Under the pieces are notes generated by a model. The model worked only from the letters and a program-made list of their open reading frames with translations. It had not been told where the DNA came from and searched no databases. A stretch of 64,000 nt of DNA from Minisyncoccota bacterium (lineage in GTDB: Bacteria; Patescibacteriota; Minisyncoccia; Phycocordibacterales; UBA5272), in assembly GCA_041666645.1 (NCBI GenBank), contig JBAYGN010000001.1, positions 31,625-95,624 of the forward strand, written 5' to 3'. The translations under genes were made by a program, and so were the position numbers. This document shows positions 2,456 to 53,826 of this stretch, piece by piece. The first letter of the stretch is position 1; each line of letters opens with the position of its first letter.

Positions 2456-2684
2456 AATTTTACCGATTAATTTTTATTAATATACTTTATTTAAAAAGTT
2501 TCAAAATTGTTTTCGATATCAACCACAATGCTTACATTAGTAGTATATCAGCTATCCCTTGATAACCACGAGGGGTTTTAGTCTAACAACCTTTTTTGCC
2601 AAACCTGCCATACTTAAACCAGATACGTGCACCCTAGCGTCTGCGGTGTGTAGAAGAAAGTGGAAGAAATGTGTATGTCATAGT

Positions 2685-3578
2685 TTATTTTTCTTTTATT
2701 TCTTTCTCTGCCTTTTCCAAATCAACACCATCTTTGGTGACATCTTTCCATAAATCCCCTTTTTCTTCTATACGTTTAAAAATATTTTTAATTGTGAATT
2801 GAATTGGTCTCAAGCCGTGTTTTACTTCGCTCCATTCTAATGGTGTAGACACAGACGCCAAAGGCACTGACCGCAAAGAATACGGTGCGATAACAGTCTG
2901 CCCAATTGCGTTTCGTGATATGTCGATATGAATTTTATTTTTACGTTTTTCTGGAAAATGTTCTAGACTTACAATCTCAGGAATCTTTTCATTTACTTTA
3001 TGTGCAATTAAATCTGCGAACTCCCTTACTTTTTCGTACGAATATTTTGCGCCAGTTGGCACATAAATATGTAGCCCGTACTTTCCAGAAGTTTTGCAAA
3101 AGTTAGGAACATTAATTTTCTCGAGAAGTTTATGTATCTCAAGTGCAGTTGTTACAACATCGTCAAAAGAAGCGTCCTCTCCTCTGTCGATATCAAGAAT
3201 CATAAACTCTGGCTTTTCTAGTGACCCAACCTTTGAACTCCACGGATGCATTTCTATGCAGCCAATGTTTGCAAGGTAAAGCAAGGTCTCTTCGTTGTTA
3301 CAAACAACGTAGTTAATATCTTTTTCAGTTGTTTTCGCGCGAATGGTTTTTGTCTCTACGAAATCAGGCACGCTTTTCGGCTCTACATTTTTTTGATAAA
3401 AATGAATTCCTTCTATTCCTTCTGGTGTACGATAAAGAGAGCTTGGATAATTTTTCAAATACTTCAAAATAATCGGTGAAATATTTTTGTAATAATCAAC
3501 AAGGTCTGCTTTTGTATAACCATCATCTGGCCAAAGAACTTTGTCTAAATGTGTGAATTCTTGAGTGGTTTTTTTCAT
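2685..3578 (-). CDS. stand-alone LigD polymerase/primase-domain protein (NHEJ polymerase)
   Basis: 297 aa. Archaeo-eukaryotic primase-like LigD PolDom motifs are present: MILDIDRGEDASFDDVV (DxD metal site), SGKYGLHIYVP, HIDISRNAIGQTVIAPYSLR. Its start overlaps the stop of the upstream ligase gene by 4 nt (3575-3578), suggesting translational coupling. Confidence 0.85.
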   Translation of the reverse strand: MKKTTQEFTHLDKVLWPDDGYTKADLVDYYKNISPIILKYLKNYPSSLYRTPEGIEGIHFYQKNVEPKSVPDFVETKTIRAKTTEKDINYVVCNNEETLLYLANIGCIEMHPWSSKVGSLEKPEFMILDIDRGEDASFDDVVTTALEIHKLLEKINVPNFCKTSGKYGLHIYVPTGAKYSYEKVREFADLIAHKVNEKIPEIVSLEHFPEKRKNKIHIDISRNAIGQTVIAPYSLRSVPLASVSTPLEWSEVKHGLRPIQFTIKNIFKRIEEKGDLWKDVTKDGVDLEKAEKEIKEK

Positions 3579-4507
3579 GAGATTTTTGGTTTTACTATTT
3601 CCATTATCACTTCTGTTGCTTTTTTATCCTCACGCAACCCCAAAAATGCGGGGTGTCGCAACTCACCGCCAAGAGTCCATTCAGTGAACTTCACCTCACA
3701 AACAACTTCTGGTTTTACCCATGTGGTTGTTGATTCAAATTTTACTTTTTCAGTGAACGGACTTTTTTCAGCTTTAATTTTTGATAACTTCGCGTGAATA
3801 CTTTTCAAGTCCTCTGCGTCAAAACCGGTTCCAACGTGACCCACATAATGCCAAACTTTCCCATCATGCACCGCAAGAGCAAGTGAGCCGAAATATTTAC
3901 GTGACAAGCGTGGCTCTGTAAATCCAACGATAACAAACTCCTGTCGCAAACCAGTCTTAATTTTTAACCAATCGCGAGAACGTTTACCAGATTGGTACGT
4001 GCTATCGGCTCGTTTTGCCATTATTCCTTCTTCGCCAGCTTTTTTGGCTTCTGTAAAATAACGTGACCCGTTAGTCGTGCGATGCTCACTAAATCTAATA
4101 ACTGTATCATCAGGAATTATTTTTTTGAGAGCTTCTTTTCTTTCAAGCAAAGTTAAATCGCACATGCTCTTGCCATCCAAGGACATTATGTCAAAAACAT
4201 AATAATAAAGATTTGTTTTCTTTCGTAGAGCGTTTTGTAAAAGCTGAAACCTAGAACGTCCTTTATTGTCCAATGCAACTAATTCACCGTCTATTACAGC
4301 GTCGTGTTTAATTTTTTCTAAAGCTTTTACAATATCAATATATCTATCACTAACAATTTCACCATTACGCGAGTACAGAGTAACTTTTCCTTTTGCAATG
4401 GAAGCTATCACACGAAACCCATCCCATTTAGTTTCAAACACCCAAGCCTTGTCATCAAACGGCTTATCAGTAAGAGTGGCGAGCATTGGTTGGATTATTT
4501 TAGACAT
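3575..4507 (-). CDS. ATP-dependent DNA ligase (LigD ligase-domain type, adenylation + OB fold)
   Basis: 310 aa. Motif I KxDG is present (ETKWDGFRV), along with DGELV, EGIMAKR and WLKIK motifs typical of ATP-dependent ligases. Confidence 0.85.
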   Translation of the reverse strand: MSKIIQPMLATLTDKPFDDKAWVFETKWDGFRVIASIAKGKVTLYSRNGEIVSDRYIDIVKALEKIKHDAVIDGELVALDNKGRSRFQLLQNALRKKTNLYYYVFDIMSLDGKSMCDLTLLERKEALKKIIPDDTVIRFSEHRTTNGSRYFTEAKKAGEEGIMAKRADSTYQSGKRSRDWLKIKTGLRQEFVIVGFTEPRLSRKYFGSLALAVHDGKVWHYVGHVGTGFDAEDLKSIHAKLSKIKAEKSPFTEKVKFESTTTWVKPEVVCEVKFTEWTLGGELRHPAFLGLREDKKATEVIMEIVKPKIS

Positions 4508-4567
4508 TTTTTGATATCTTATCTATAACGTTAATGTTAACACCGAGCTGTTAAGTCTCCTATTAAT

Positions 4568-5299
4568 TTATATTTCAATAATAGAATAAATAAGTAAATG
4601 GTCAGAGGCAGTCGATTTTACGGCTCTACTCGATGCTATTTTTATATCCTTGGTAACAAAAATATAATCTAGCTTATATTTTAGTCCAGAAGGCTTACAC
4701 ACGAGACAGCCTTTAGGGTTTGTGCTCCATGTTAATTGCGTTCCCTTAACATCAGTATCCAGCATGGTATTTTTCATAACTTGTATACTTTTCTGTTCTG
4801 GTGTTGCATTAAAATCTCCCACAACGACAGAGTTTTCTTTGGGAACAACTTTTAATAAACTTTTTACCTGAGTGTCTTGTATTTTAAATGGTTTTAAATG
4901 CGTATGAACAAAGTGAACCGAAAAAATATGAAGGTTTTTATCGTTGACTTTAATTACTGCTTCCACGGCAGTTCTTTTACGAGTTTCTGACAAAAGATGG
5001 ATTTTAGTGTCTATGATTTCATGTTTGCTTATTATTGCGTTTCCTAAACCCATAGTTTTATCGGCGTTACTATCTCTTGAAAATTCCGATATAGTCTCCA
5101 TCGGAAAATGTGATGTTTCATATACCCATTTGTATCCTAATTCCTCGGCTATCTTTTTTGTAACATTAATTCTGTCACTATCCCGAATAACTTCTTGGAG
5201 ACCAATTACATCAGCATCAATAACTTTTAGGCGTTTGATAATTTCTTTTAAGTTTTCCCCTCCCCAAATATTCCAAGATACAATTTTTAGTTGTGACAT
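4568..5299 (-). CDS. endonuclease/exonuclease/phosphatase (EEP) family protein
   Basis: 243 aa. N-terminal KIVSWNIWGG...GLQEV and C-terminal GDFN...SDHLLI motifs are characteristic of the EEP fold. Confidence 0.75.
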   Translation of the reverse strand: MSQLKIVSWNIWGGENLKEIIKRLKVIDADVIGLQEVIRDSDRINVTKKIAEELGYKWVYETSHFPMETISEFSRDSNADKTMGLGNAIISKHEIIDTKIHLLSETRKRTAVEAVIKVNDKNLHIFSVHFVHTHLKPFKIQDTQVKSLLKVVPKENSVVVGDFNATPEQKSIQVMKNTMLDTDVKGTQLTWSTNPKGCLVCKPSGLKYKLDYIFVTKDIKIASSRAVKSTASDHLLIYSIIEI

Positions 5300-5354
5300 G
5301 AATTTAGTATATATCTTGGAGATAATCTTGACTAACTAGCTATTAAATTGTAGG

Positions 5355-5807
5355 GTGGGAATTGGTTGTATCTTCTGTTTTAAATATCTGGAAGGAATCA
5401 TTGTGAATTATCTTTTGATTTTTATTCTGTGTCTTGGTCTTGCTGTTATTGGGATTTATATCGCAAGGTTTTTTCCCAACAATAATACGAGGCGCCAAAT
5501 TGCGATAAGTGCATGTCAGAACGTTGCATTAAGCTTCTGTGGCACCTGGAATGCTACAGGTATCTCCATGCCTGGCTTACCCGGTGCTAAAAACTTTTAC
5601 GTTATATTGGAAGAAAGGGATCGCGTACTTTGGGGTTGGTCAAAAGAACCATACCCGAGAACACTTGTGCTTCTCTATCACAGAGAGTTGGCGCGTGGTG
5701 AAACTGTTCAAGTGGCGTTATTGTCGCAAGAAAATATTCCTGAACATCCGGACAGTTTGGCTGACCTTCTTTTCCCATACCCCACAGGGCGCAACATTGG
5801 GAAGTGA
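5355..5807 (+). CDS. hypothetical membrane-anchored protein (orphan)
   Basis: ORF with one N-terminal TM helix (NYLLIFILCLGLAVIGIYIA). A more likely start is GTG 5404, preceded by GGAAGGA. The C-terminal two thirds are visibly G+C-richer. Followed by a terminator at 5822-5862. Confidence 0.5.
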   Translation: MGIGCIFCFKYLEGIIVNYLLIFILCLGLAVIGIYIARFFPNNNTRRQIAISACQNVALSFCGTWNATGISMPGLPGAKNFYVILEERDRVLWGWSKEPYPRTLVLLYHRELARGETVQVALLSQENIPEHPDSLADLLFPYPTGRNIGK

Positions 5808-5821
5808 CTCCTTTATTTTAG

Positions 5822-5862
5822 AACACCATTTGCAATTTACTTGCAATGGTGTTTTTCTTTAT
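5822..5862 (+). terminator. intrinsic terminator after 5355..5807
   Basis: AACACCATTTGCAA / TTGCAATGGTGTT hairpin (one bulge) followed by TTTTCTTT. Confidence 0.6.
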
Positions 5863-5867
5863 TTGTT

Positions 5868-5935
5868 AGCTGATGAGGACTCGGTCACAAAACTACCTCG
5901 CTTTGATCTAAAACGAAGTTTGTACTATTCTGAGA
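5868..5935 (-). repeat. degenerate copy of the tRNA-linked junction unit (AGGACTCG|GTCACAAAAC...)
   Basis: Plus strand reads gctgatgAGGACTCGGTCACAAAACtacctcg...gaagtttgt. It has the same core-plus-hairpin-arm arrangement as 6174-6240 (ACAAACT/AGTTTTGT stem on the minus strand). Confidence 0.5.
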
Positions 5936-6132
5936 AAAATGTAGAATAGGACAATGTTCATTACGGGGAGATTGAAATGCGAACACGTTTCATAGTCATA
6001 ATGTTTGTGGGGATCATATCGTTGTTGTTTGTTGAGACTTTCATGCTCTTTTCGATTATCGACCCAACGCTCGATAAAAATGGCTTTTGTTTCAACATTC
6101 CAAACCAATCACGATTGTGCATTCGAAAATCC

Positions 6133-6158
6133 AAACCTCCTACGGGAGGTTTTTGTTT
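6133..6158. terminator. hairpin AAACCTCC-TACG-GGAGGTTT, possible bidirectional terminator
   Basis: Perfect 8-bp stem. T-run (TTTGTTTT) lies on the plus side. On the minus strand it lies ~15 nt 3' of the distal structured unit and is followed by GGATTTTCG. Confidence 0.45.
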
Positions 6159-6169
6159 TATGAAAATCA

Positions 6170-6337
6170 ATTTCTGGGGTACAGGGACTCGGTCACAAAA
6201 CTTCTCCTCGTAAACTCGTCGATAAAGTTTCGCGACCCCTATTCGAGTCCCTGCCGCAAGTGACGCAGGTCACTTGCTTTCCCCAGCAACACAAAGTGTA
6301 AGAACGCTTCGCGTACGATAAATGTGTGTTGCTGGGG
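6170..6337 (-). repeat. 168-nt direct repeat, distal copy (tRNA-Gln 3'-end copy + structured unit)
   Basis: Hand alignment to 12328..12495 gives 2 mismatches in 168 nt (6180 t/a, 6248 t/c). Contains CTGGGGTACAGGGACTCG (tRNA-Gln 3' 18 nt, 1 mismatch) and the hairpins described in the findings. Confidence 0.9.
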
Positions 6338-6486
6338 CTGTGGGACGAAGTTGGAACACTTTTAACTTTTAATTCTATTGAAAATTTAGGGAAACTAAGG
6401 CAGGTAATGTAATATCAAGTAAAAAAAGTGTTAGGATAATAATAAGTTGAAGGCTACTTTCTAGTTTTGCTAAAGATTATTTTATA

Positions 6487-8241
6487 TTACTTTTGCCATT
6501 TTTTAATTACCTCAGCAAATTTAGCTTCTTTCCACTCCTCTTTCCATTCTTCTAAATATTTAATGTCTCCTGATTTTGGTTTGTTTATACAAGCGTCTAT
6601 CTTTACAATTGAAGGCATAATTACGGAATCTCCAATCAATAAAGCTTCTCCTGCTTGTAAAATTGGTAAAGTTTCAGTGATAGAACCAAGGGTATCTGGT
6701 AGTAGGCGTTTTACATAATTTTGATCCTCAGGATTTGTTAATCTCATTGCGATAAAGTTACTACACTGCGAGAAAATAGTCTCGGATATTTCTGAAGGTC
6801 TTTGACTAACAATACATAGAGTTACTCCATACTTTCTTCCTTCTTTAGCAATACGTTCGATTGCTGTTCTTGAAGCTCTGTATTTTACTAGGTCACTTTT
6901 GGGTACATATTTGTGAGCTTCTTCATAAACAAGCAATAGAGGGGTTTCACTTTCAATTTCATCAGCAAGTATTTTTTTATAATAATAACCATATTCAAAC
7001 AACATTCTTGATATAAGTGATACTGTAATACTTAAAACTTCAAAAGGAATACCGGAAAGATCAATTATTGTTACATTAGATTTTTTTGTGGAATAACCAA
7101 GGAATTGTCTCAGTATTCCCTCAAGTGTTTCCGAAGAAACATCATCAAATAAAAATTTAAGACGGGGATTATTTCTTATTGTCTCTAGTCTTAAAATAAA
7201 TCTTTCGAAGTCACCATTAAAAGGCCCATTACTAGCTTTAGTTTCCTTGGCTGTGTTCGCAACACAAAAACTTACATCTTCTGAAAAGTAACTTTTCTTT
7301 CTATCTGTTATCAAGCTACCGTCTGATTTTTTCGGCATGCCTTCGCCTTCTAGTTTTCCTATAACTTCATTGTTTATATTTTTTATATATCTAATTACAT
7401 CATCTATCTTAAATTGAATAGGAGAATCAAAATAGATTTTACTTTCTGGAACCTGATCTTTTTTATCAAGAAGAGTATTTTGTATTTTTTTATTTTCTGT
7501 TACCGCATATCTAAATTGTGAGACTTGATTATGTGAATTTTCTTCATTACTTTCAATAAATAAATCTCCAAGTTCCTCACTATCAAATAACCAGTAAGGT
7601 ATTTTTATATTTCCTGAATTAATATAATTAGCATCAGGAAAAGCGTTTTTATACTCACCGTGGATATCAAAGATAACAATATGAGAGTTATTTAAACCTT
7701 GGTAGTCAGATTTTTTACCTTGTACAGCTTCTTGTAGCACCTTAGCAACAGTATGAGACTTTCCAGAACCAGTAGAACCGACTATGGCTATGTGTTTGTT
7801 AAAAAACTTATTACCGTCTACTGGAACATTTACTGTTTTATCTTGTGTTAATTTTGAAAAACAAAAACTAACATTTTCTTCTAGGTTATTGTATATTTTT
7901 TGTATGTCCTCTTTTGTCGCAGGTTCAGCAGATTTTGGTGGTATTGCTATATTATTTCCGCCTCTAATAAATTTATCAGTTGAATCAATAATACCTAAAG
8001 GAATTGCTTCAATCACATAAATCTTTTTTCTTTCGCCGTTTTCATCAGGCTCTTGTATTTCTATAGAAAAGTTTTCGATTATTGCTATAACTCTACAATT
8101 TTGATGATCAAATACTTTTAAATATGACCCAACAGCAAGGACCTCTCCTTCAACTTTGAATTTCTCAATATTATTTACCAATATCTTAATTTTATTTGGA
8201 AAAACTGAGACGACCTCAGCCATGTTTTTTTCATCAGTCAT
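6487..8241 (-). CDS. herA: HerA-like ATPase (HAS-barrel + FtsK/HerA P-loop, DUF87), partner of DUF4297
   Basis: 584 aa. N-terminal barrel region (VVSVFPNKIKILV...GSYLKVF), Walker A IVGSTGSGKSH, Walker B LLLVYEEAHKYV, CIVSQRPSEIS. Sits 3 nt downstream of the DUF4297 gene. Confidence 0.8.
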   Translation of the reverse strand: MTDEKNMAEVVSVFPNKIKILVNNIEKFKVEGEVLAVGSYLKVFDHQNCRVIAIIENFSIEIQEPDENGERKKIYVIEAIPLGIIDSTDKFIRGGNNIAIPPKSAEPATKEDIQKIYNNLEENVSFCFSKLTQDKTVNVPVDGNKFFNKHIAIVGSTGSGKSHTVAKVLQEAVQGKKSDYQGLNNSHIVIFDIHGEYKNAFPDANYINSGNIKIPYWLFDSEELGDLFIESNEENSHNQVSQFRYAVTENKKIQNTLLDKKDQVPESKIYFDSPIQFKIDDVIRYIKNINNEVIGKLEGEGMPKKSDGSLITDRKKSYFSEDVSFCVANTAKETKASNGPFNGDFERFILRLETIRNNPRLKFLFDDVSSETLEGILRQFLGYSTKKSNVTIIDLSGIPFEVLSITVSLISRMLFEYGYYYKKILADEIESETPLLLVYEEAHKYVPKSDLVKYRASRTAIERIAKEGRKYGVTLCIVSQRPSEISETIFSQCSNFIAMRLTNPEDQNYVKRLLPDTLGSITETLPILQAGEALLIGDSVIMPSIVKIDACINKPKSGDIKYLEEWKEEWKEAKFAEVIKKWQK

Positions 8242-8244
8242 AGA

Positions 8245-9393
8245 TTATGAAATTATTTTAATAATATCTTTAGTATGTTGTATGTAAAATTCTTTCAAGT
8301 CTTTTAAGTTCTCTTGAAGGTCAACTTTTGATAAAGTTGAAAACACATAAACTTCATCTAGTTTACCTTTTTTAAACAAAAATGGTAAAAACTCCTCTGA
8401 AATAATTTTAAATGCAACATTTGAAGAATCTTTGTATGTATCGACAATTAAATCTTGTATTCTAAACTTGTCTCCATTAAAATGTGTTCCATCACTAAAG
8501 TGCAATCCTTTATCTAAGAAACTTTGCTTTAGCAGGTTTAAACGAGTAGTGTCTATACCATATAAACAGATATAGGGTGAGGGTGATATATCTTTTCTAA
8601 AGTATTTATTTTTTATATTTGTAACTATTTCTAAAAGATTAGAATCCCTAATCGTGTCATCAATTTGAATGACTATCAATCTCTCTTTGCAAGGTATGTT
8701 AATCTTTTTAAATGTGAAGTATTCTTTTTTTAGATAACTTAAATATTTGTTGTTACTTAAAAACTTACAATAAGCCAATTCAAATATTACTTTTTCTTTT
8801 TTATTAACTAACGTTTTCAGTTTATTAAAGTTTATTAATCTTTGCTTCTTTTCTTTAATGATTGCTATGTCGAGTAAGTTAGATTTAAAAAGTGCATGAT
8901 AAACAGTAGCTTCCTCATCTGTTGTTAACTTGAATCCTGTTTTTATTTTTGAAATTAGATCTTTAAATTGTTGTTCAAAGTTATCAGAAAACTCTAGTAT
9001 AAAATGTTTTAAAAAATGCTCCTTATTTTTTAAGGTGTACTTATCTTTTTCAGTACCTAAAATTTTATCTAATTCTGAGATGTTTAGAAATTTTTTCTCA
9101 GGGGCTTTATCTTTAAAAAAAGCATATAACTTAAAAGTTTTCTTTTTATCTATGATGGACAGTTCTAGTAATTGTGTTAATGCTTTTTTGATACTTGAGG
9201 GGGTATACTTTTTAGATTCTTTATACTTAACTTGTATATAAAAATTACCTAGTCCAATATCTTGAATTTGTTCAATTTCTATATCTGAATGTGGGTTATT
9301 TAGTGCTTCTAAAATCGACTTATCAAATTGATAAGTAAAACCTTTTATTGCATAGTATCCACCATCATCTTGCTTTGATTTTGTTGTTCCCAT
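8245..9393 (-). CDS. DUF4297 (Cap4-like PD-(D/E)xK nuclease domain) protein of a DUF4297-HerA defence pair
   Basis: 382 aa. N-terminus reads GGYYAIKGFTYQFDKSILEAL...IEIEQIQDI...YIQVKYK. This matches the GFxYQ / E-x-QD / QVK signature of DUF4297 nucleases as I remember it. Gene order DUF4297 then HerA is the described arrangement. Confidence 0.7.
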   Translation of the reverse strand: MGTTKSKQDDGGYYAIKGFTYQFDKSILEALNNPHSDIEIEQIQDIGLGNFYIQVKYKESKKYTPSSIKKALTQLLELSIIDKKKTFKLYAFFKDKAPEKKFLNISELDKILGTEKDKYTLKNKEHFLKHFILEFSDNFEQQFKDLISKIKTGFKLTTDEEATVYHALFKSNLLDIAIIKEKKQRLINFNKLKTLVNKKEKVIFELAYCKFLSNNKYLSYLKKEYFTFKKINIPCKERLIVIQIDDTIRDSNLLEIVTNIKNKYFRKDISPSPYICLYGIDTTRLNLLKQSFLDKGLHFSDGTHFNGDKFRIQDLIVDTYKDSSNVAFKIISEEFLPFLFKKGKLDEVYVFSTLSKVDLQENLKDLKEFYIQHTKDIIKIIS

Positions 9394-9434
9394 TTTCTAG
9401 ATTCTACTCCTATTACAAGATAAATCTAGTCCTT

Positions 9435-9632
9435 TTATTTGTAACGCATTGGTCCTGATGTTGCATTTAAAGTATCTTCTAGGTTGGATGTGCTCTCTTC
9501 CTCTAATAAGATATTTTGGATCCGCTTTGGTTCACAAAACTTTTCTTTTATTTTATTAAAATTCGCAACTGTATAGCCAACTGCAAAAAACACAAAACAG
9601 AGAAGCACTATTTTTAGCTTTAGTGTATTCAT
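9435..9632 (-). CDS. small membrane/secreted hypothetical protein
   Basis: 65-aa ORF with one N-terminal hydrophobic helix (LKIVLLCFVFFAVGYTV), lying upstream of the DUF4297 gene. No obvious Shine-Dalgarno. Confidence 0.35.
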   Translation of the reverse strand: MNTLKLKIVLLCFVFFAVGYTVANFNKIKEKFCEPKRIQNILLEEESTSNLEDTLNATSGPMRYK

Positions 9633-9731
9633 GCGTAAGGTTCTTAAAAATTTGATAGCAAAACACCGCCATTGAAATAGGAGAACCTTACGAGTAGACC
9701 CACTCCATGGCGGAGCTTTAGTCGTAAGGTT
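9633..9731 (-). promoter_or_regulatory. leader with mutually exclusive hairpins (CGTAAGGTT x2 / AACCTTACG x1; CCGCCAT/ATGGCGG)
   Basis: Plus-strand copies: CGTAAGGTT at 9634-9642 and 9723-9731, with its complement AACCTTACG at 9684-9692; CCGCCAT at 9666-9672 and ATGGCGG at 9707-9713. One alternative pairs the 9 nt immediately 5' of the start codon (start codon at 9630-9632, minus strand). Confidence 0.35.
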
Positions 9732-9771
9732 TTTAAATTATGTTTTGTAGTCACATTGTATCAGTTATAAA

Positions 9772-10263
9772 TCAAAAGAGAGACCTAAGAATTCGGTCAC
9801 AAAACCATTTGTAACAATCTACAATTTCACCCGCTTTTTCTAGTCGTAAGAAATCTTCGCGAGTCTGTAATTCTTTGTAGTGCTGTGTAACTTTTGCACC
9901 GAGATGAAGCACTGCGTGCAAATGCGCCCCTGTCGTAGCCGAACCAGTGTTTCCAGAATGTGCGATTATATCCCCCTCTTTATATATTCCTTTTGTTGGT
10001 AATTCTTTTAGATGACATAGTTCAAGTCCCCAAGTTGTTCCTTCGTAATCAAATATAAAAACGCCGACGTTTCCTTTATATTTATTTACTTCAGTTTTGA
10101 ACATCTCACCATCACAAGGTGCAAATATTGGTGTACCGACAGCAACCTTAAAATCTGTTCCGACGTGTGTGCCTGTTTTTGGATAATTTTTACGGTCTGG
10201 AAAAGCACCGAATGGGTTGGTGGAGTTGTAGGATTGTTTGAAGTTGAGGAGGGGGAGGTGCAT
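9772..10263 (-). CDS. M23/LytM-family metallopeptidase domain protein (no signal peptide)
   Basis: 163 aa. HxxxD motif (GTHVGTDF) and HxH motif (GAHLHAVLH). The last ~8 codons run into the junction-motif remnant GAATTCGGTCACAAAAC (9789-9805). Confidence 0.7.
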   Translation of the reverse strand: MHLPLLNFKQSYNSTNPFGAFPDRKNYPKTGTHVGTDFKVAVGTPIFAPCDGEMFKTEVNKYKGNVGVFIFDYEGTTWGLELCHLKELPTKGIYKEGDIIAHSGNTGSATTGAHLHAVLHLGAKVTQHYKELQTREDFLRLEKAGEIVDCYKWFCDRILRSLF

Positions 10264-10272
10264 AATATAAAT

Positions 10273-12168
10273 TTATATATAATCTCTTATATCCACGTCA
10301 ATATTTTGCCCCTGAGCCCTTTTAGTAAGAGATATCCATATAGAGTTTCCACCAGACCCTCTTTTATCAACGTTAAAAAATTGTTTTTCAGATTTTTTAA
10401 TAGAAATTTTAATTACAGATACAACTTGATTATCATTTCTTAAAATAACTGGCTCAAATTCTATAAGACTATTAAACTTATCTTGTGTGCAATCTGTTAT
10501 TTGTTTAAGATTATCAAGTATTTGCAATCGAACAGTATCAAGTGTTTTATTTTGTATTCTAAATTCTTGCCCTATATCAAAAAAAGTTAAACCGTTTTTA
10601 ACAATAAGTAAATTTTTTATTTCTTCTCTTTTAATAGCCTCTGGGTTTTCTACTATTCCAACAATTAAAGTTCCCCCTTCCGTGTTAAGCATAGCCAAAA
10701 TAACCTTTAATATTTTTTCAAATATCTTTTTTTTAATTGAAGAATCAGTTTCTTCATCACGATATTCTTGTTCTAATGGAGTATAAAAACTTGATTTCCA
10801 TTCAATCTTTTCATTTTCTTGTATTACAAAATCTTTAATTTTATCCCAATCATCTTCAATATAATATTTATTTAAAATCTCATGAACATCAACAATCCAT
10901 TGATTTAATTCATGAACGATAACATTTAAAGACCATCTTGTATCCTTAGCATTATTAATTTCTTCGAGAACAGAAAAAGTTTTTATTGAAATTAAAAAAA
11001 TTTTATTAGTCCATTCATTATCAGTTTCAGTGATTTCTTTATTATTAAAAGCTGAAAAATTTTTATGTGAATATTCAGATAATTCTTTCTTAATTTCAGT
11101 TGCCAGTTTTGCTTTTTCTGAAACAATTTCAAAAAAATTTTTACCGTCTTGATAGTTAAAGCCAGAGCATATTTTTTTAAAGAAAAAAATTAAATTTCTT
11201 TCATTTTTTTGTATAAAAATATCAAAAAAACTTGTTATATCTTTTGAGGTATTTCTGTAGTAATGTTCAATACTTTCATTAAGATCATTAGATGTTACGT
11301 AAATTAAATCAAGAGATTTTGATAAATTAAATGACTCCCCTTTATTCTCATTAATTATTTTTTTAAAACTGTTTTCAATTACTGGTCTTATAATTAAAGA
11401 TAAAAAAGTTATACCAGCTAAAGACCTACTTGTTTTTAGGTTTAAAAATAAAAAATTATCATCTAGTTTAACTGGGAATTTTGAGTCATAATTTTGATTA
11501 AAATGAAATCTTACATCCCAAGCCACCTTTTCAAGAAAAAAACAAAGTTTTATAAAATTATTTTCATGTGCTGGTAGGTGTTTTAAAATATTTCTTAGAA
11601 TATCTGTAGTATTTTTTCTTAGAAATTCTATACTATTTTTAGTAATTGATTTATAGTCTATCGCAATACCAAAGAAAGCAAGCATCACTGCGGTATTTAA
11701 AAAAATTAATTTATCAAAATTGGATTCTTCTTTTTGCAAAATGCTTATTTTTTGATTTTTACTTATTAGTTCTATTAATATTTTTATAAAATTTTCATTA
11801 CGAAGAGTCGCGTTAAAAACAAGAACATATACATTTGTTTTAGAATATAATTCATGTGTGAAGTCTTCATCTAAACCATCAAAAATAGAAGAAAGAATAC
11901 ATGTGCAATCAAAAAAATCTTTACTTGTTTTTGCTTGTTCTATTTTTTTTATTAAATCTGTAATAGCTCCAGCTGTAGATTTTTTAATAAAATGTTTATA
12001 GTGATCTTCATTTTTCAAATCAGCATACATTTCATCAAAAGAAGACCATTTTTTATTAAGATTGCTCATAAAGATAAGGTATTTAAAAAGTATATCTTTA
12101 TTTAACCAATACAACAATTTTTGAAATACTAAATTAAAACCCTTACACAACAAGAGGTTTTTTAGCAT
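10273..12168 (-). CDS. hypothetical protein with C-terminal AlbA_2/Schlafen-like domain
   Basis: 631-aa ORF; the real start may be Met35 at 12066. The C-terminal ~170 aa begin EKIEWKSSFY...KILKVILAMLNTEGGTLIVGIVE, which resembles the E-x-K ... N-T-x-GG-x-L-x-x-G signature of AlbA_2 domains. The N-terminal ~440 aa are helical with no motif I recognise. Confidence 0.5.
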   Translation of the reverse strand: MLKNLLLCKGFNLVFQKLLYWLNKDILFKYLIFMSNLNKKWSSFDEMYADLKNEDHYKHFIKKSTAGAITDLIKKIEQAKTSKDFFDCTCILSSIFDGLDEDFTHELYSKTNVYVLVFNATLRNENFIKILIELISKNQKISILQKEESNFDKLIFLNTAVMLAFFGIAIDYKSITKNSIEFLRKNTTDILRNILKHLPAHENNFIKLCFFLEKVAWDVRFHFNQNYDSKFPVKLDDNFLFLNLKTSRSLAGITFLSLIIRPVIENSFKKIINENKGESFNLSKSLDLIYVTSNDLNESIEHYYRNTSKDITSFFDIFIQKNERNLIFFFKKICSGFNYQDGKNFFEIVSEKAKLATEIKKELSEYSHKNFSAFNNKEITETDNEWTNKIFLISIKTFSVLEEINNAKDTRWSLNVIVHELNQWIVDVHEILNKYYIEDDWDKIKDFVIQENEKIEWKSSFYTPLEQEYRDEETDSSIKKKIFEKILKVILAMLNTEGGTLIVGIVENPEAIKREEIKNLLIVKNGLTFFDIGQEFRIQNKTLDTVRLQILDNLKQITDCTQDKFNSLIEFEPVILRNDNQVVSVIKISIKKSEKQFFNVDKRGSGGNSIWISLTKRAQGQNIDVDIRDYI

Positions 12169-12202
12169 TTTCGCAAAATATATTAACGAAGCTCATTATT
12201 TT

Positions 12203-12290
12203 GCTGGGAGATAGGGATTCGGTCACAAAATCAACTCCTTCGTCGCAGATGATTTTCCGACCCGTATTCGAGTCCCGACGTACGACACGC
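12203..12290 (-). repeat. diverged copy of the tRNA-linked hairpin unit with variant acceptor strand
   Basis: Minus strand reads GGGACTCG-AATACGG-GTCGGAAAATCA-TCTGCGACGAAGGAGT-TGATTTTGTGACC-GAATCCC-TA-TCTCCCAGC. It has the same layout as the 168-nt unit (T-like stem, capped hairpin, CGACGA..GGAG loop). Confidence 0.6.
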
Positions 12291-12297
12291 AGACCAT

Positions 12298-12317
12298 GTG
12301 GGACTCGGTCACCAAAC
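12298..12317 (-). repeat. junction fragment GGGACTCG|GTCACCAAAC
   Basis: Short copy of the core/junction motif lying between the two fuller units. Confidence 0.5.
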
Positions 12318-12327
12318 ATATACTTTT

Positions 12328-12495
12328 ATTTCTGGGGAACAGGGACTCGGTCACAAAACTTCTCCTCGTAAACTCGTCGATAAAGTTTCGCGACCCCTAT
12401 TCGAGCCCCTGCCGCAAGTGACGCAGGTCACTTGCTTTCCCCAGCAACACAAAGTGTAAGAACGCTTCGCGTACGATAAATGTGTGTTGCTGGGG
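12328..12495 (-). repeat. 168-nt direct repeat, tRNA-proximal copy (structured tRNA-like unit)
   Basis: See 6170..6337. The right end (12490-12495) overlaps the 3' end of tRNA-Gln. The left end (12332-12349) is an exact second copy of the tRNA's 3' 18 nt, CTGGGGAACAGGGACTCG. Confidence 0.9.
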
Positions 12496-12560
12496 AACAG
12501 GGACTCGAACCCCAATACCATCCTCCAGAGGGATGTGTCCTACCATTAGACGATTCCCCA
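12490..12560 (-). tRNA. tRNA-Gln (anticodon CTG)
   Basis: Minus strand: TGGGGAA TC GTCT AATGGTA GGAC A CATCC CTCTGGA GGATG GTAT TGGGG TTCGAGT CCCTG TTCCCCA G. Cloverleaf with 7-bp acceptor stem. CCA is not encoded. Confidence 0.85.
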
Positions 12561-12648
12561 ATGTTGTTTAAATACTTAAATACACTGGATTAAACTGTTC
12601 ACAATTCTACAATATTTTAGCCTATTTATCAACGTGAAAATATTTAAT

Positions 12649-14307
12649 TTATTTTAACGAAGCCCTTACAAGTTGAATATCTGTGTAAGGATACTTCCCT
12701 TTTAGGTGTTCAAATACTGGCGTTAATTTATGAGTTTCTAGTTCTTTAAATGCCTTTGCGATTTTCTCTCTGTCGTTCTTTTTCGGTAGAACGTGTTTAA
12801 GTTCTACGTCTTCCTTTAATTCTACTAATTTTTCAATGTGCCCAATAATTGTAGCCTCGGATAGATTGCGACGCTCTGCAATTTCTTTTATAGAAAGTTT
12901 TTCTTTTAACATTTCTTGAGTCTTTGCATGTGACGGAACTTTCACTTCTATTTCTTCCGATTCTACGTCATCTAATTCTTCTAATTCGCCACCAGAAGAT
13001 GTTAAGAACTTTTCATGCAATTCTTTTAATTGTTTTTCGGAATACTTTTCAATGGCGTTTTCGGCTTGGTCGCTTTTTGCGCGAAAATTAATATCTGCTT
13101 CGCGCACTTCTTCGGCAATCATTAAAGCTTGAGGATTGAACCCCTTCAAATAAAGACCGTCCATAGACTTTAAACGAGAAAGAGCTACATATCCCTGACC
13201 AGATGTAAATGCGCGACTGAGGTCAATTTCTGCCTTATCAAGCGTCATTCCTTGGCTCTTGTGAACAGTTATAGCCCACGCGAGTTTGATGGGAAGTTGG
13301 CTTATTTCAGCTTTTACTTTGCCGTCCTCCTCTATTCTCCAAGTATCTACTTTGATGGTTATTTTTTTACCATTTGTAAGTTCAACAACCGGACTTCCGT
13401 CTGCTGTAAAATCTGCAACTATCCCCATAGAGCCATTTACATAGAGTCTCTCTTGGCTGTTTTTTATACAAATAACTTTGGCGCCAACTTTTAATTGTAA
13501 AGTTTCTTCAGCGAGACAGTTATTTTTAAGTGATTCCAGAATAGAAGCTTTACCTTTTGTAATCATTTCATAAGTGTGTACTTCGCCTTCTATTTCTTCA
13601 AAAGCTTTTCTGTTTATTTGATCAACATTTTCATTATGAGTGTAGAGCTTGATGTGATCATCGCTTTGTATTTTTTTGTTTGCGTCTTTTAAATATTCAA
13701 AATGCTCTTCTTCGACTTCACCGCTACGAATGGCGTTTAAAATATCTGACAACTTGTCGTCGTCTTGGCGGAACTGCTCTGTTAAATAGCAAACAACAGG
13801 CTTCGCCTCTTGCCACGCTCGTGAAGTAAAAGCAAACACACCTTCACTTTCATAAGTATCCCCAATGCGCGTTATTGGTGGAAGCTGAAAGAAGTCTCCA
13901 GTGAACACAACTTGCATACCACCAAAAGGTTTCTCATTTCGACGCATATGCTTTGCAGTCTTATCAAGCATGTCTACAAAGGATGCATGAAGCATTGATA
14001 TTTCATCTATGATTAAAACTTGTGTCTCATTCCATCTTTTGTATAGAGCTGGCTTTTCTTCCATTGCATCTAAGTCGTATGCATGAAGTTTTTGTTTAAT
14101 ACCAATACCACTCCACGCGTGAATAGTTGTTCCGCCGATATGAGTCGATGCGATACCAGTTGAAGCCGTGACCGCATACTTCACGCCGTGTTTTTTAAGA
14201 TATGAAACATAATCGCGGATGGCGTATGACTTACCAGCACCAGCCGCTCCGGTGAGAAAAGTGGTGTGTCCAAGTTTGAGAATTTGAAGAGCTGTTTTTT
14301 GGGTCAT
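12649..14307 (-). CDS. PIF1/RecD-family ATP-dependent DNA helicase with C-terminal HTH
   Basis: 552 aa. Walker A LTGAAGAGKSY, LIIDEISM (Walker B), FTGDFFQLPP, TVHKSQGMTLD, and a C-terminal helix-turn-helix tail (SIKEIAERRNLSEATIIGHIEKL). Confidence 0.8.
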   Translation of the reverse strand: MTQKTALQILKLGHTTFLTGAAGAGKSYAIRDYVSYLKKHGVKYAVTASTGIASTHIGGTTIHAWSGIGIKQKLHAYDLDAMEEKPALYKRWNETQVLIIDEISMLHASFVDMLDKTAKHMRRNEKPFGGMQVVFTGDFFQLPPITRIGDTYESEGVFAFTSRAWQEAKPVVCYLTEQFRQDDDKLSDILNAIRSGEVEEEHFEYLKDANKKIQSDDHIKLYTHNENVDQINRKAFEEIEGEVHTYEMITKGKASILESLKNNCLAEETLQLKVGAKVICIKNSQERLYVNGSMGIVADFTADGSPVVELTNGKKITIKVDTWRIEEDGKVKAEISQLPIKLAWAITVHKSQGMTLDKAEIDLSRAFTSGQGYVALSRLKSMDGLYLKGFNPQALMIAEEVREADINFRAKSDQAENAIEKYSEKQLKELHEKFLTSSGGELEELDDVESEEIEVKVPSHAKTQEMLKEKLSIKEIAERRNLSEATIIGHIEKLVELKEDVELKHVLPKKNDREKIAKAFKELETHKLTPVFEHLKGKYPYTDIQLVRASLK

Positions 14308-14436: not shown

Positions 14437-14688
14437 ATGAGGACTTGTTTACACGAAGTTGGTGCCAACTTGGCTGTTAGCTTTGATGGTAATTCCATCA
14501 TCGTGAGTCGCTACGTGCGACCTCTCCCTTTCCCTGGTTTTGATGGCGAGTGGCAAGATGTTGTCACTTTCACAAACGAACAGGATTGGTACGCGAGCAA
14601 GTACCAGAAGCAAATCGTTGGAGATGACAATGTTGCAATGATTGTCTATCACTGGCTTGATATTGCGGAATCCAATCAGCCCGCTTGA
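14437..14688 (+). CDS. hypothetical protein (G+C-richer orphan cassette)
   Basis: 83-aa ORF with RBS AGGAGA, its own promoter and a strong terminator. A hand count of the first 120 nt gives 59 G+C. Confidence 0.6.
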   Translation: MRTCLHEVGANLAVSFDGNSIIVSRYVRPLPFPGFDGEWQDVVTFTNEQDWYASKYQKQIVGDDNVAMIVYHWLDIAESNQPA

Positions 14689-14727
14689 CTACCACGGAAA
14701 ATCCGTGGTAGTCAAGCGGGGTTTTTA
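14680..14727 (+). terminator. intrinsic terminator
   Basis: CCCGCTTGACTACCACGG...CCGTGGTAGTCAAGCGGG (18-bp stem) followed by GTTTTTAT. Overlaps the stop codon. Confidence 0.8.
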
Positions 14728-17842: not shown

Positions 17843-17988
17843 AGTTATATGCAGAATCGGTCACAACTTCTCCTTACTTATTTTTTGAGCCAAAAGCAAC
17901 CTTCGCGAGCTCTCCTCCACAAGGAAACTATCGTTTCCCTGACACCCTTCAAAACCTTCTGTCTCAAAAAGCTTCGCTTATTTTTTTG
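17843..17988 (-). repeat. degenerate second unit of the tRNA-Thr-linked array
   Basis: Ends (minus sense) with GGAGAAGTTGTGACC-GATTCTGC (plus 17851-17875). Contains GAGACAGAAGG, a GAA-looped hairpin remnant and TTGGCTCAAAAAATAAG remnants of the proximal unit. Confidence 0.55.
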
Positions 17989-18153
17989 AGCCAGAAGGCA
18001 GAATCGGTCACGAAACTTCTCCTCGCATGCTCGTCGATAAAGTTTCGCTACCCCGTATTCGATTCTGTAAGACGTGAAGCAGTTCACGTCTACCTAAATT
18101 TGATAAAACAAATTTAGGCCTTCTGGCTCAAAAAAGCTTCGCTTATTTTTTTG
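17989..18153 (-). repeat. structured tRNA-like unit downstream of tRNA-Thr(CGT)
   Basis: Minus strand: GCCAGAA-GG-CCTAAATTTG(TTTTATC)AAATTTAGG-T-AGACGTGAA(CTGC)TTCACGTCT-TA-CAGAATCG-AATACGG-GGTAGCGAAACTT-TATCGACGAGCATGCGAGGAG-AAGTTTCGTGACC-GATTCTG-CC-TTCTGGC-T. A ~45-nt direct repeat (17962-18006 vs 18127-18171) includes the tRNA 3' end. Confidence 0.8.
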
Positions 18154-18226
18154 AGCCAGAAGGCAGAATCGAACTGCCGACCTTCTCGTTACGAGTGAGA
18201 TGCTCTACCAACTGAGCTATTCTGGC
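18154..18226 (-). tRNA. tRNA-Thr (anticodon CGT)
   Basis: Minus strand: GCCAGAA TA GCTC AGTTGGTA GAGC A TCTCA CTCGTAA CGAGA AGGTC GGCAG TTCGATT CTGCC TTCTGGC T. One A-C mismatch closes the anticodon stem. Confidence 0.85.
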
Positions 18227-53727: not shown

Positions 53728-53742
53728 AATATATTTATTTTG

Positions 53743-53826
53743 TGCGCCGGGCTGGATTTGAACCAGCGAAGCCCGAAGGGCGACAGATTTACAGTCTGTT
53801 GTGATTGACCACTCCACCACCGACGC
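53743..53826 (-). tRNA. tRNA-Tyr (anticodon GTA), long variable arm
   Basis: Minus strand: GCGTCGG TG GTGG AGTGGTCAA TCAC A ACAGA CTGTAAA TCTGT CGCCCTTCGGGCTTC GCTGG TTCAAAT CCAGC CCGGCGC A. Confidence 0.85.

Follow-up and report, generated by a model that had tools for sequence, protein, structure and literature searches.

A candidate DNA docking module, matched to the adjacent tRNA, at tRNA and tmRNA 3′ ends in CPR bacteria

Introduction

A 168-nt unit that lies 3′ of tRNA-Gln(CTG) in the window, that is, the whole 64-kb stretch of Minisyncoccota DNA analyzed here, is on balance best read as a cis-acting DNA module of a tRNA/tmRNA-3′-end integration hot-spot in CPR bacteria and not as a tRNA-like RNA gene, a reading that we favor with some reserve. 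The arms of the unit are re-templated to whichever tRNA adjoins. The module family is widespread in CPR and apparently undescribed, and a full-text literature search returned no earlier description of such a module. Much of bacterial diversity belongs to the CPR/Patescibacteria, on which there is almost no genetics and whose mobile elements are poorly known. Serine integrases are workhorses of genome engineering.

The module offers a conserved and easily spotted marker of tRNA-linked integration hot-spots, including DUF4297-HerA defence islands, and this marker is tied to compact elements that combine a large serine recombinase (LSR) with a filamentous-phage-type initiator. It also provides candidates for attP (the pseudo-tRNA end pX described below) and for attB (tRNA end plus module), and a family of LSRs docking at tRNAs and tmRNA could yield integration tools for CPR bacteria. 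If part of the specificity comes from the arms, sites could be programmed by a new principle. For annotators, the case is a warning against calling such stable tRNA-like folds RNA genes, which they probably are not.

Results

Anatomy and fold of the unit behind tRNA-Gln

The tRNA-Gln(CTG) gene occupies positions 12489..12560 on the minus strand (ARAGORN; Rfam RF00005, 54.5 bits over 12490-12560), and the unit behind it, U1, was delimited by repeat search at 12328-12495 on the same strand. The last 18-20 nt of the tRNA (12490-12507, denoted X) are both copied and mirrored by the unit. An exact 18-nt second copy of the tRNA 3′ end had been reported in an earlier, sequence-only reading of this DNA and is confirmed: positions 12332..12349 (minus strand) carry CGAGTCCCTGTTCCCCAG, identical to the first occurrence inside tRNA-Gln at 12490-12507. 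The search for X was run with a 17-mer at up to 3 mismatches, for which 0.01 chance matches are expected.

Read in the tRNA sense (all features on the minus strand), the gene is followed by a trailer palindrome, pal1 (12445..12489), of sequence CAACACACA...TGTGTTG with an inner ACGC-GAA-GCGT hairpin. Next comes acc′ (CTGGGGAA, 12437..12444), which is exactly complementary to the acceptor 3′ strand of the tRNA and its discriminator, and then hp1 (12414..12435), a 9-bp hairpin with an invariant CTGC loop that is defined by the MFE structure and by compensatory changes and that divides the inverted tRNA-end copy at the acceptor/T junction. It is followed by T′ (CAGGGGCTCG, 12402..12411; fold and sequence), complementary to the T-stem 3′ strand and half of the T loop, and by a conserved bulge (AATAGG) with the core hairpin (12349..12401; alignment and covariation). 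The base of the core, GGTCGCGAAA/TTTGTGACC, is invariant and holds two fixed G.T positions, and the upper stem covaries. The pal1 of U1 is a weak counterpart of the bidirectional terminator palindrome seen in other family members; a canonical A-run/hairpin/T-run stands at this position in most related loci.

Folding of both strands gives −73.3 kcal/mol (MFE; z = −7.48 against shuffles) for the minus strand and a weaker −58.7 kcal/mol (z = −5.05) for the plus strand. The MFE structure reproduces the four-part fold proposed from the letters, namely a 7-bp acceptor-like stem, a 9-bp CUGC-loop hairpin, a 10-bp T-like stem, and a 13-14-bp capped hairpin. An alternative pairing of the unit's acceptor strand with the tRNA trailer, put earlier at 13 bp, is found as a perfect inverted repeat of 15 nt, 12437-12451 with 12483-12497 (100% complementary, acceptor included), and it is predicted to be the preferred pairing once the tRNA's own 3′ half joins the fold. 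The proposed tRNA-like cloverleaf fares less well: it can be drawn for the tRNA-Gln unit, but only about one third of family members can form it, decay of the downstream acceptor strand being frequent. What is kept throughout the family is the inverted tRNA-end copy, the CTGC hairpin, and the T′-core-T3′ hairpin.

Second copy, defence island, and further units in the window

The second copy, U2, lies at 6170..6331 on the minus strand (repeat span 6170-6337; repeat search and covariance model) and contains pal1 (6287-6331), acc′, hp1 (6256-6277), T′ (6244-6253), the core (6191-6243), and X (6174-6191, 1 mismatch). U1 and U2 differ by 2 substitutions over 168 nt. The one in CAGGGRCTCG preserves pairing, as had been noticed from the sequence, with G12406 vs A6248 turning a G.T wobble into an A-T pair; the other (T12338 vs A6180), a point absent from that reading, costs U2 one acceptor pair. 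Abutting pal1 of U2 is pX, a pseudo-tRNA 3′ end at 6332..6357 (minus strand) that consists of GTTC + 22 nt, against GTTC + 17 nt in the tRNA. By analogy with known att sites, pX is read as a putative P-type half-site of a serine-recombinase att site.

U1 and U2 bracket a 5.8-kb defence island, with the tRNA 3′-end direct repeat at both island ends (12332-12349 and 6174-6191, 1 mismatch). The island cargo (6358..12202, minus strand; Pfam and PADLOC scans) comprises an SLFN/AlbA_2-like protein (10273-12168), an M23 peptidase (9772-10263), and a DUF4297 protein (8245-9393) with HerA (6487-8241), all on the minus strand. A 65-aa ORF is also part of the cargo. Homologues of the SLFN-like protein, followed as a route to empty sites, are found 3′ of tRNA-Gln elsewhere as well (L046/L047), with different downstream sequence. 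No recombinase domain was found among the island proteins by Pfam or PADLOC, and tblastn with LSR and Rep queries against the whole 64-kb window gave no match; a tyrosine recombinase domain is likewise absent from the proteins scanned around the units and from the precomputed Pfam matches of the called genes. With no LSR, Rep, or other recombinase in the window, the link to integrative elements therefore rests on related loci.

Degenerate or partial units, and one independent unit, are also present on the minus strand. Beside U1 lies U3 (12203..12316; covariance-model match, 81.5 bits), a degenerate unit of another core subfamily. In it, the remnant of a core end with X occupies 12298-12316 and the core 12221-12269, with a decayed hairpin and T′ between them, and the 3′ arm GAATCCCTATCTCCCAGC runs over 12203-12220. 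The core 3′ half of a third subfamily, followed by a decayed X, is seen in the sequence at 5869..5901. The independent unit lies at 17988..18152, 3′ of tRNA-Thr(CGT) (18153-18226), and was found by the covariance model (68.3 bits) outside the training set; its arms fit tRNA-Thr and its core is of the same subfamily as that of the Gln units. A degenerate second unit lies beyond it at 17851-17987 (sequence).

Spread, covariation, and arms matched to the tRNA

About 45 further units are present in CPR genomes and metagenomes, behind at least 12 tRNA species and tmRNA. Pattern scans gave 7 genome loci and 16 metagenome loci. The covariance-model search proposed in the sequence-only reading was productive, returning new units outside the training set 3′ of tRNA-Thr (window) and of tRNA-Arg, tRNA-Phe, tRNA-Cys, and tRNA-Lys (other loci). 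The shared order is tRNA end X, terminator-like palindrome, inverted X (acc′ + T′), conserved bulged hairpin, and direct X, the inverted X being usually interrupted by the covarying CTGC hairpin; the conserved motifs are CTGC, GAATAGG, and TTTGTGACC. Other core types occur in L024, L028, and L031. Units occur also solo, without an island. Nothing was found on searching viral contigs with the tRNA-end 17-mer TTTTGTGACCGAGTCCC or on a Rep-based search of viral contigs, and the unit has no match among GenBank phages.

Across 34 units, 96.4% of cells are paired, vs 77.4% in shuffles (0 of 500 shuffles as high), and both-side changes are seen in 171 cells vs 52 expected, with 19 of the 26 pairs showing changes on both sides. 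When the 3′ partner is slid by 1-3 columns as a control, only ~40% of cells pair. For hp1 alone, compensatory changes are found at 9/9 pairs (34 units). This covariation indicates that the structure of the unit is under selection. A lack of structural covariation had been named as refuting the earlier reading; the homologues covary strongly, so it is not refuted on this point.

The arms were compared with the adjacent tRNA in 17 tRNA-adjacent units of 10 tRNA identities. An exact complement of 9 nt or more to the adjacent tRNA is found for acc′ in 11 units and for T′ in 12, and T′ tracks tRNA identity elsewhere; the arms do change with the tRNA, which is the relation that the earlier reading had wanted checked. 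The clearest pair is formed by the units L019-Lys and L026-Val, which share an identical 46-nt core and similar hairpins and have their arms fully exchanged. Both acc′ and T′ fit the local real tRNA or tmRNA variant, not pX (e.g. L026; L028 vs L029).

Mobile elements at related loci

At six related loci (L003/L040, L024, L026, L028/L029 (tmRNA), L031, L041) the unit lies at the far junction of an element inserted at a tRNA or tmRNA 3′ end, in the layout tRNA / LSR, Rep, cargo / pX, pal1, X′, core, X / host, where X′ is the inverted copy. The elements insert exactly between the tRNA end and the module. LSR genes adjoin the tRNA in related loci, a PF05144 Rep is part of the L003 cargo, and a conserved Rep-LSR module is present in loci L024 to L043. 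The element Rep is a filamentous-phage-type (gpII-type) rolling-circle initiator, a distant relative, at 24% identity, of that of a filamentous phage. A reading of L030 as a circular element, suggested by a 30-nt terminal overlap, was rejected, the overlap being due to tandem repeats of 75 nt on either side of the region in L028. The L028 and L029 tmRNAs are ~78% identical, a value read by eye and not computed.

A close comparison of the tRNA ends shows that pX is longer than the real tRNA end by exactly 5 nt in 12/12 cases (pX = GTTC + 22 (or 23) nt; tRNA = GTTC + 17 (or 18) nt). In serine integrases the zinc-ribbon-domain motif lies 5 bp further from the crossover in the attP half-site than in the attB one (Rutherford et al. 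2013, PMC3783163), and the +5-nt difference of pX equals this published shift. The same CA/CACA follows both the tRNA end and pX (GC in L031). Adjacent right-hand LSR half-sites, compared by eye with pX or X, show no convincing symmetry, and the first 20 nt after the tRNA show none with the tRNA end. The only sequence symmetric to the tRNA half-site is the displaced inverted copy.

Several signs of mobility speak for a unit that itself moves and is not a passive target flank, and count against the docking reading discussed below. Identical cores stand at different tRNAs and in different genomes, the same tRNA is found with or without a unit (presence/absence polymorphism), islands both in the window and at L007 are flanked by two direct copies, and pal1 is ~86-90% conserved between L028 and L029, where megablast aligned pal1 but not the tmRNA bodies.

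Discussion

If the unit is a docking module, the tRNA end would be the B-type and pX the P-type left half-site of LSR att sites, with crossover at the shared CA/CACA just 3′ of the tRNA. The +5-nt geometry would then place the module on the target (B′) side of the crossover, where it would act as a docking flank; the inverted copy X′ could be the symmetric partner to the tRNA-end half-site, and the palindrome would insulate the tRNA. U1 would be an unoccupied (solo) module and U2 the same module, displaced beyond a 5.8-kb defence island with a terminal pX. The recombinase of the island itself would have been lost, or was never present. The displaced U2 and the decayed units lead us to read the window as an accretion site. 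The module may be deposited by the elements or be an independent MITE-like passenger, and the form in which it is read may be duplex, cruciform, or single-stranded DNA. Against the docking flank counts that we know of no precedent for an LSR half-site partner that lies beyond a 45-nt palindrome and is split by a 22-nt hairpin.

A bolder form of this proposal, to which we give little credence, makes the module a structure-gated, target-templated docking site on which a symmetric att site is assembled on demand. Together acc′, T′, and TCGAAT form an almost perfect mirror of the tRNA-end half-site, and this mirror would come to lie beside the half-site only after extrusion of the palindrome and of the CTGC hairpin, whether in a cruciform or in the single-stranded DNA that the rolling-circle initiator makes. 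The arms, and not protein contacts alone, would then set the tRNA used, which would be a new way to program a serine-recombinase or rolling-circle element.

The sequence-only reading had first proposed a co-transcribed tRNA-like RNA, a substrate for RNase P or the CCA-adding enzyme. More broadly, the unit could be a structured noncoding RNA, made by tRNA read-through or from its own promoter and processed by RNase P/RNase Z or acting antisense to the tRNA 3′ end. Such an RNA would account for the very stable sense-strand fold (−73.3 kcal/mol, z = −7.5), the strong covariation of the helices, the core pairs (G.U invariant at one position; G.U, A.U, or G.C at another), and the greater stability of the tRNA-sense strand in 34/34 units (mean difference 8.2 kcal/mol under RNA parameters and 3.7 under DNA parameters). 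No terminator is predicted in the window trailer pal1, which leaves room here for read-through from the tRNA promoter, and tRNA-Leu(TAA) units persist with compensated hairpins in four related genomes. However, a canonical bidirectional intrinsic terminator separates tRNA and unit in most loci, no promoter-like site was found ahead of the unit, the acceptor stem that RNase P or CCA addition would recognize is decayed in about two thirds of units, and the downstream genes differ in identity and orientation among loci. Besides the two fixed G.T positions, the non-canonical pairs are G.U in 15 cases and A.C in 12; G.U is thus no commoner than A.C, unlike what a sense-strand RNA would show. A co-transcript is, moreover, predicted to mis-pair the tRNA's own 3′ end and so unfold the tRNA. 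No Rfam family matches the unit: an Rfam 15 cmscan of 5500-13000 at E <= 10 gave only tRNA, plus chance-level matches elsewhere, and neither ARAGORN nor RF00005, even at E <= 10, scored the unit, the true tRNAs alone being called. We regard an RNA of this kind as quite unlikely, and the earlier proposal is not favored. Other RNA classes were weighed from sequence resemblance only and set aside. The 5′ end resembles the tRNA-like domain of tmRNA by eye, yet ARAGORN and the Rfam tmRNA models are silent; a hammerhead or other small ribozyme, a group II intron end, a TnpB/IscB omega-RNA, and an IS110 bridge RNA have neither a model match nor such a protein near; and a T-loop intron or split tRNA is at odds with a tRNA-Gln that is intact without the unit.

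At the DNA level, the unit might instead be carried by the element and work as folded single-stranded DNA, either as a single-strand (complementary-strand) origin or as an X/X′ duplex that presents the att core as in CTX attP/attC. This overlaps with the second proposal of the earlier reading, a folded recombination site, which stands in so far as the units do lie at junctions of integrative elements and islands and single-stranded DNA is plausible, the complete elements encoding a PF05144 rolling-circle initiator. A gpII-type initiator displaces a strand, and solo units could on this account be remnants or non-autonomous mini-elements. Covarying helices with an invariant loop and bulge (here CTGC and GAATAGG) are typical of single-strand origins and attC sites. 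One strand is the more stable in 34/34 units, identical cores carry exchanged arms, presence/absence polymorphism is seen, and Rep could start at one and finish at the other of the two direct copies that flank islands; the sequence before pX, CTTTAAAA^GTTC (L003/L024), has what we take to be a resemblance to the f1 gpII nick region. What does not fit is the enzyme. Serine recombinases make double-strand breaks in duplex sites, so CTX/attC-style single-strand exchange is not obvious, and the encoded LSR could presumably not resolve a folded single strand without chromosome breakage. In addition, unlike in Ff phages, the Rep and LSR genes run antisense to the more stable strand; nothing about an origin calls for mimicry of the target tRNA; by the +5-nt geometry the unit falls on the target side; and T′ fits host-specific tmRNA variants. 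We consider this account unlikely. Very unlikely, in our view, is that the units are inert scars, that is, attL/attR remnants of repeated tRNA integrations whose structure was inherited from active elements and whose window copies are functionless now. Decayed or truncated units do lie beside intact ones (12203-12316 and 5869-5901 in the window; L002, L020, L024, L029), many units have a decayed downstream acceptor strand, and the window island is without any recombinase. Plain att scars, however, are direct tRNA fragments only, and the earlier argument that an att duplication needs no complementary 5′ partners holds: the units add an inverted copy fitted to the local tRNA. Compensatory changes preserve the hairpins of solo units that share a tRNA across genomes (Leu(TAA) in L004/L017/L019/L023; Gln in the window vs L006), and the pairing of 96.4% of cells across 34 units also speaks against scars.

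Among known systems, mascRNA, bacterial YrlA, and viral TLS resemble the unit in having a drawable 7-bp acceptor stem and T-like arm, whereas the unit is without D or anticodon arm and without T loop, its acceptor is mostly decayed, and a terminator stands upstream. With ssoA-type origins and the Ff minus-strand origin it shares the form of a ~150-nt multi-hairpin noncoding module with invariant loop and bulge motifs, covarying stems, and the association with a rolling-circle initiator. It differs in mimicking the adjacent tRNA, in a stable strand that is antisense to rep, and in chromosomal units that lie far from rep, a gene present in related loci and not in the window.

CTX-phage attP (XerCD) and integron attC are alike in that inverted target copies pair to mimic a duplex target, in structure being kept over sequence, and in the position at the 3′ end of cargo or cassette, and the CTX phage also in the filamentous-phage-type Rep that complete elements carry. 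CTX attP, however, depends on host Xer and brings no integrase of its own, whereas the complete elements here encode an LSR and no Xer or IntI is associated; attC depends on IntI, with attI beside the array, and on conserved GTTRRRY core sites, and the conserved motifs of the units differ. In both cases the contrast extends to the core sequence, strongly conserved in the units, and to the arms, which are tRNA-specific rather than made for one fixed site.

The att sites of LSRs (A118/LI, Bxb1, phiC31) are comparable in that pX exceeds the tRNA end by 5 nt, as P-type half-sites do B-type ones, and in a short shared sequence at the presumed crossover. LSR sites known so far are plain duplexes of 40-50 bp whose half-sites adjoin, and the one sequence here that is symmetric to the tRNA half-site is set apart by a 35-50-nt palindrome and interrupted by a hairpin. 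Islander-type tRNA/tmRNA islands and tycheposon-like arrays are alike in the 3′-end position, the duplicated tRNA end, the two copies that bracket a defence island, and the decayed arrays beside them. In Islander-type islands the repeat is a tRNA fragment and the enzyme a tyrosine integrase; here the repeat is 168 nt long with an inverted copy and a covarying core, the enzyme at related loci is an LSR, and solo units stand without an island.

The unit behind tRNA-Gln

The tRNA-Gln(CTG) gene occupies 12489-12560 on the minus strand (Rfam tRNA, 54.5 bits over 12490-12560). Its last 18 nt, CGAGTCCCTGTTCCCCAG (12490-12507), recur as an exact second copy at 12332-12349, as the sequence-only reading had noted; for a 17-mer with up to three mismatches, 0.01 hits are expected by chance. 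All helices proposed in that reading for the module following the tRNA 3' end (hereafter the unit) are found in its minus-strand fold, namely a 7-bp acceptor-like stem, a 9-bp hairpin with a CUGC loop, a 10-bp T-like stem and a 13-14-bp capped hairpin. This fold has a predicted energy of -73.3 kcal/mol (z = -7.48), and that of the plus strand is weaker (-58.7 kcal/mol, z = -5.05). The two copies of the 168-nt repeat (12328-12495 and 6170-6337) differ at two positions: G12406/A6248, in the T-like arm, retains its pair (G.T to A-T) and is pairing-neutral as claimed, and T12338/A6180 costs the second copy one acceptor pair. The alternative pairing between the 5' acceptor strand of the unit and the tRNA trailer proved to be a perfect 15-nt inverted repeat. 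With repeat, fold and alternative pairing verified, the original observation is therefore confirmed.

A family of units with conserved pairing

The unit belongs to a large family. The words CTCGAATA-N-GGGTC and TTTGTGACC are common to the window copy next to the tRNA (U1) and its diverged neighbour U3, and a gapped pattern built from them identified seven loci in reference genomes (Saccharibacteria, Parcubacteria/Paceibacterota and one unclassified CPR bacterium), a related pattern adding 16 loci among metagenome contigs. A covariance model trained on 27 units recovered others absent from the training set, including one directly after tRNA-Thr(CGT) in the window (17986-18107) and, at other loci, units after tRNA-Arg, tRNA-Phe, tRNA-Cys and tRNA-Lys. 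The hosts now comprise Gln, Thr, Val (two anticodons), Phe, Leu (three anticodons), Cys, Lys, Arg and Trp tRNAs as well as tmRNA, and occupancy is polymorphic, tRNA-Lys(CTT) carrying a unit in L019 and none in two related genomes (L004 and L024). A closer look at tRNA-Thr(CGT) reveals a complete unit and a degenerate second one in tandem (17851-18152, minus strand), with arms that fit tRNA-Thr and a core of the same subfamily as the Gln units. No unit accompanies tRNA-Tyr (53742-53826).

Read in tRNA sense, the architecture begins with the last ~20 nt of the tRNA (X), followed by a trailer palindrome (pal1) whose arms often reach into the acceptor and which in most loci consists of an A-run, a G+C hairpin and a T-run, a predicted bidirectional intrinsic terminator. 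Then come a complement of the acceptor 3' strand (acc'), a 9-bp hairpin with an invariant CTGC loop (hp1), and a complement of the T-stem 3' strand and half the T loop (T') that continues into an invariant TCGAATA. Next is a conserved core hairpin, invariant at its base (GGTCGCGAAA / TTTGTGACC) and variable at the top, and last a direct copy of X. Structural covariation, which the sequence-only reading had suggested looking for in homologues, is evident across 34 units: standard pairs fill 96.4% of cells against 77.4% in shuffles, none of 500 shuffles reaching the observed value, and 171 cells are changed on both sides where 52 are expected. Sliding the 3' partner by 1-3 columns leaves pairing in only about 40% of cells. 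Compensatory changes affect all nine hp1 pairs and the four upper core pairs.

The arms were compared with the adjacent gene in 17 units adjoining an intact tRNA, representing 10 tRNA identities. An exact complement of at least 9 nt is present in acc' in 11 of the 17 and in T' in 12, so that the expected fit between arms and neighbouring tRNA is borne out; the direct copy of X is exact over at least 11 nt in 10 units and over at least 16 nt, acceptor strand included, in six. The inverted copy is thus the best-kept relation of the unit to its tRNA. A tRNA-like fold can indeed be drawn for the window copy, but since the acceptor strand is re-copied in only 6/17, only about a third of units can form a full cloverleaf. 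The units behind tRNA-Lys in L019 and tRNA-Val in L026 have an identical 46-nt core, similar hp1 and pal1 edges and entirely different arms; the arms are therefore replaced as a set.

Association with serine recombinase elements

In L003, a gene between tRNA-Leu and a distal unit matches PF05144, the gpII-type replication initiator of filamentous phages (Rep). Its homologues always lie in one module of an HTH protein, a small protein, Rep, a small ORF and a large serine recombinase (LSR) of ~520 aa. Every locus with both ends readable has the same layout in tRNA sense: tRNA or tmRNA, LSR and Rep (antisense), cargo, a pseudo-tRNA 3' end (pX), pal1, acc', in some cases hp1, T', core, X and host sequence. 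This holds for elements at Leu(CAA) (L003/L040), Leu(TAG) (L024), Val(GAC) (L026), tmRNA (L028/L029), Trp (L031, with a different core) and Arg (L041). The LSR reading frames extend 11 to >100 nt into the antisense strand of the abutted tRNA or tmRNA (L026 11229-12788, L028 11279-12859, L031 11050-12558, L034 11064-12641), and the LSR C-terminus would therefore change with integration state. L034 holds two LSR elements back to back at tRNA-Val and tRNA-Ser (2011-3807 and 4109-12641) in which no R1-type unit was detected, and further core types are therefore probable, like those in L024, L028 and L031.

Every unit not directly behind a tRNA is preceded by pX, which has a T-loop-like GTTC start and an acceptor-like end and exceeds the true tRNA end by exactly 5 nt in 12/12 cases, including the window (6332-6357): GTTC + 22 against GTTC + 17, or +23 against +18 in L031. 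The same CA/CACA (GC in L031) follows both ends. Elements with different targets have similar pX (L026 at tRNA-Val and L028 at tmRNA; L003 at Leu-CAA and L024 at Leu-TAG), which is thus part of the element. The zinc-ribbon-domain motif of serine-integrase half-sites sits 5 bp nearer the crossover in attB than in attP (Rutherford et al. 2013, PMC3783163). By this 5-nt rule, the tRNA end would be a B-type and pX a P-type left half-site, with the crossover at the 3' boundary of the tRNA; the junction of tRNA and LSR would be attL, and that of pX and pal1 attR. With such a crossover the whole unit, pal1 included, would fall on the target (B') side, in agreement with acc' of L026, which fits the real tRNA-Val and not pX, and with T' of L028 and L029, which in each fits the tmRNA variant of its own host. 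The left arm of pal1, adjoining the tRNA, has no symmetry with the tRNA-end half-site, whose sole symmetric partner is acc' + T' + TCGAAT, beyond pal1 and split by hp1. Extrusion of pal1 and hp1 may bring this mirror image against the tRNA end, an attractive model without precedent.

Identical cores with swapped arms, presence/absence polymorphism and the conservation of pal1 between L028 and L029 suggest a unit that is itself mobile or copied; pal1 is 86-90% conserved between these two, and megablast aligned the pal1 stretch, not the tmRNA bodies. In L028, ~75-nt tandem repeats that each contain a GACCATCTGC...GCAGATGGT hairpin are found on the 5' side of tmRNA and of tRNA-Ser (4482-4620, 13376-13650). 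L030 was rejected as a circular contig, the signal being a false one produced by repeats of this type.

Nature of the unit

The co-transcribed, tRNA-like ncRNA proposed in the sequence-only reading is disfavoured, and we regard a structured RNA as improbable. The tRNA-sense fold is the more stable in 34/34 units (mean difference 8.2 kcal/mol under RNA and 3.7 under DNA parameters), one G.T is invariant (32/32) and a second position is G.T, A.T or G.C; outside these two positions, however, G.U (15) is not commoner than A.C (12). Terminators lie upstream of the unit in most loci, no promoter-like site was found before the window unit, the acceptor stem is decayed in most units, and a co-transcript is predicted to pair the tRNA 3' end with acc'/T', unfolding the tRNA. 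Base pairing is under selection, most likely in DNA, as single-strand hairpins or cruciforms. An element-borne single-strand origin or folded att site is rather unlikely. What precedes pX in L003 and L024 (CTTTAAAA^GTTC) appears to resemble the nick region of f1 gpII, and pX may therefore serve as a replication origin too; the unit differs from integron attC and CTX attP in that no tyrosine recombinase is associated with it. Inert scars are also improbable, the unit being set apart from ordinary att scars by its inverted copy and conserved core.

In how it works, the unit most resembles the att-site flank of tRNA-integrating islands, and by the 5-nt rule it is connected with serine-integrase sites. 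No tRNA or other Rfam model and no GenBank phage matches it, the literature searched yielded no description of such a module, and it departs in defining features from every specific family tested. We file it as an att-associated, target-templated palindromic module, with a modest chance that a recombination site is here defined in a new, structure-gated manner.

The tRNA-Gln locus of the window

The tRNA-Gln locus is read as an accretion site. In tRNA sense, the solo unit U1 (12332-12489) is followed by U3 (12203-12316, minus strand), a decayed unit of another subfamily, then by cargo (6358-12202), pX, U2 (6170-6331) and a truncated third core (5869-5901). The 5.8 kb of cargo between the two 168-nt copies encodes an SLFN/AlbA_2-like protein, an M23 peptidase and a DUF4297-HerA defence pair. 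Like LSR elements, the island ends in a putative P-type site adjoining a unit, yet there is no recombinase among its cargo, and the whole 64-kb window encodes no LSR or Rep. With a unit on each side, the island could have arisen in three ways: by integration into two units in tandem, as are present after tRNA-Thr in the window; by homologous recombination through the 168-nt identity; or by mobilisation in trans. The same two-copy arrangement occurs in L007.

The core of U3 is of the type found after tRNA-Val and tRNA-Leu in another genome (L001/L004), and its 3' arm resembles a tRNA-Val end more than that of tRNA-Gln, which suggests arrival from another tRNA context. The DUF4297 (382 aa) and HerA (584 aa) anti-phage pair spans 6487-9393 on the minus strand (PADLOC E = 1.4e-36 and 1.7e-242). 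Directly 3' of tRNA-Gln(CTG) is a ~600-aa protein with a weak Schlafen/AlbA_2 domain (10273-12168, minus strand); homologues with 58-63% identity hold the same position in L046 (4726-6507) and L047 (223-2004) without a recognisable unit, and tRNA-Gln thus looks like a hot-spot where this gene recurs. Just past the hot-spot, two neighbouring genes at 2685-4507 (minus strand) were read, from their translations only, as coding for an ATP-dependent DNA ligase (310 aa) and a LigD-like primase-polymerase (297 aa), and would then form a pair of NHEJ type. The intergenic sequence at 14680-14720 contains a perfect palindrome of 19 bp around a 3-nt loop.
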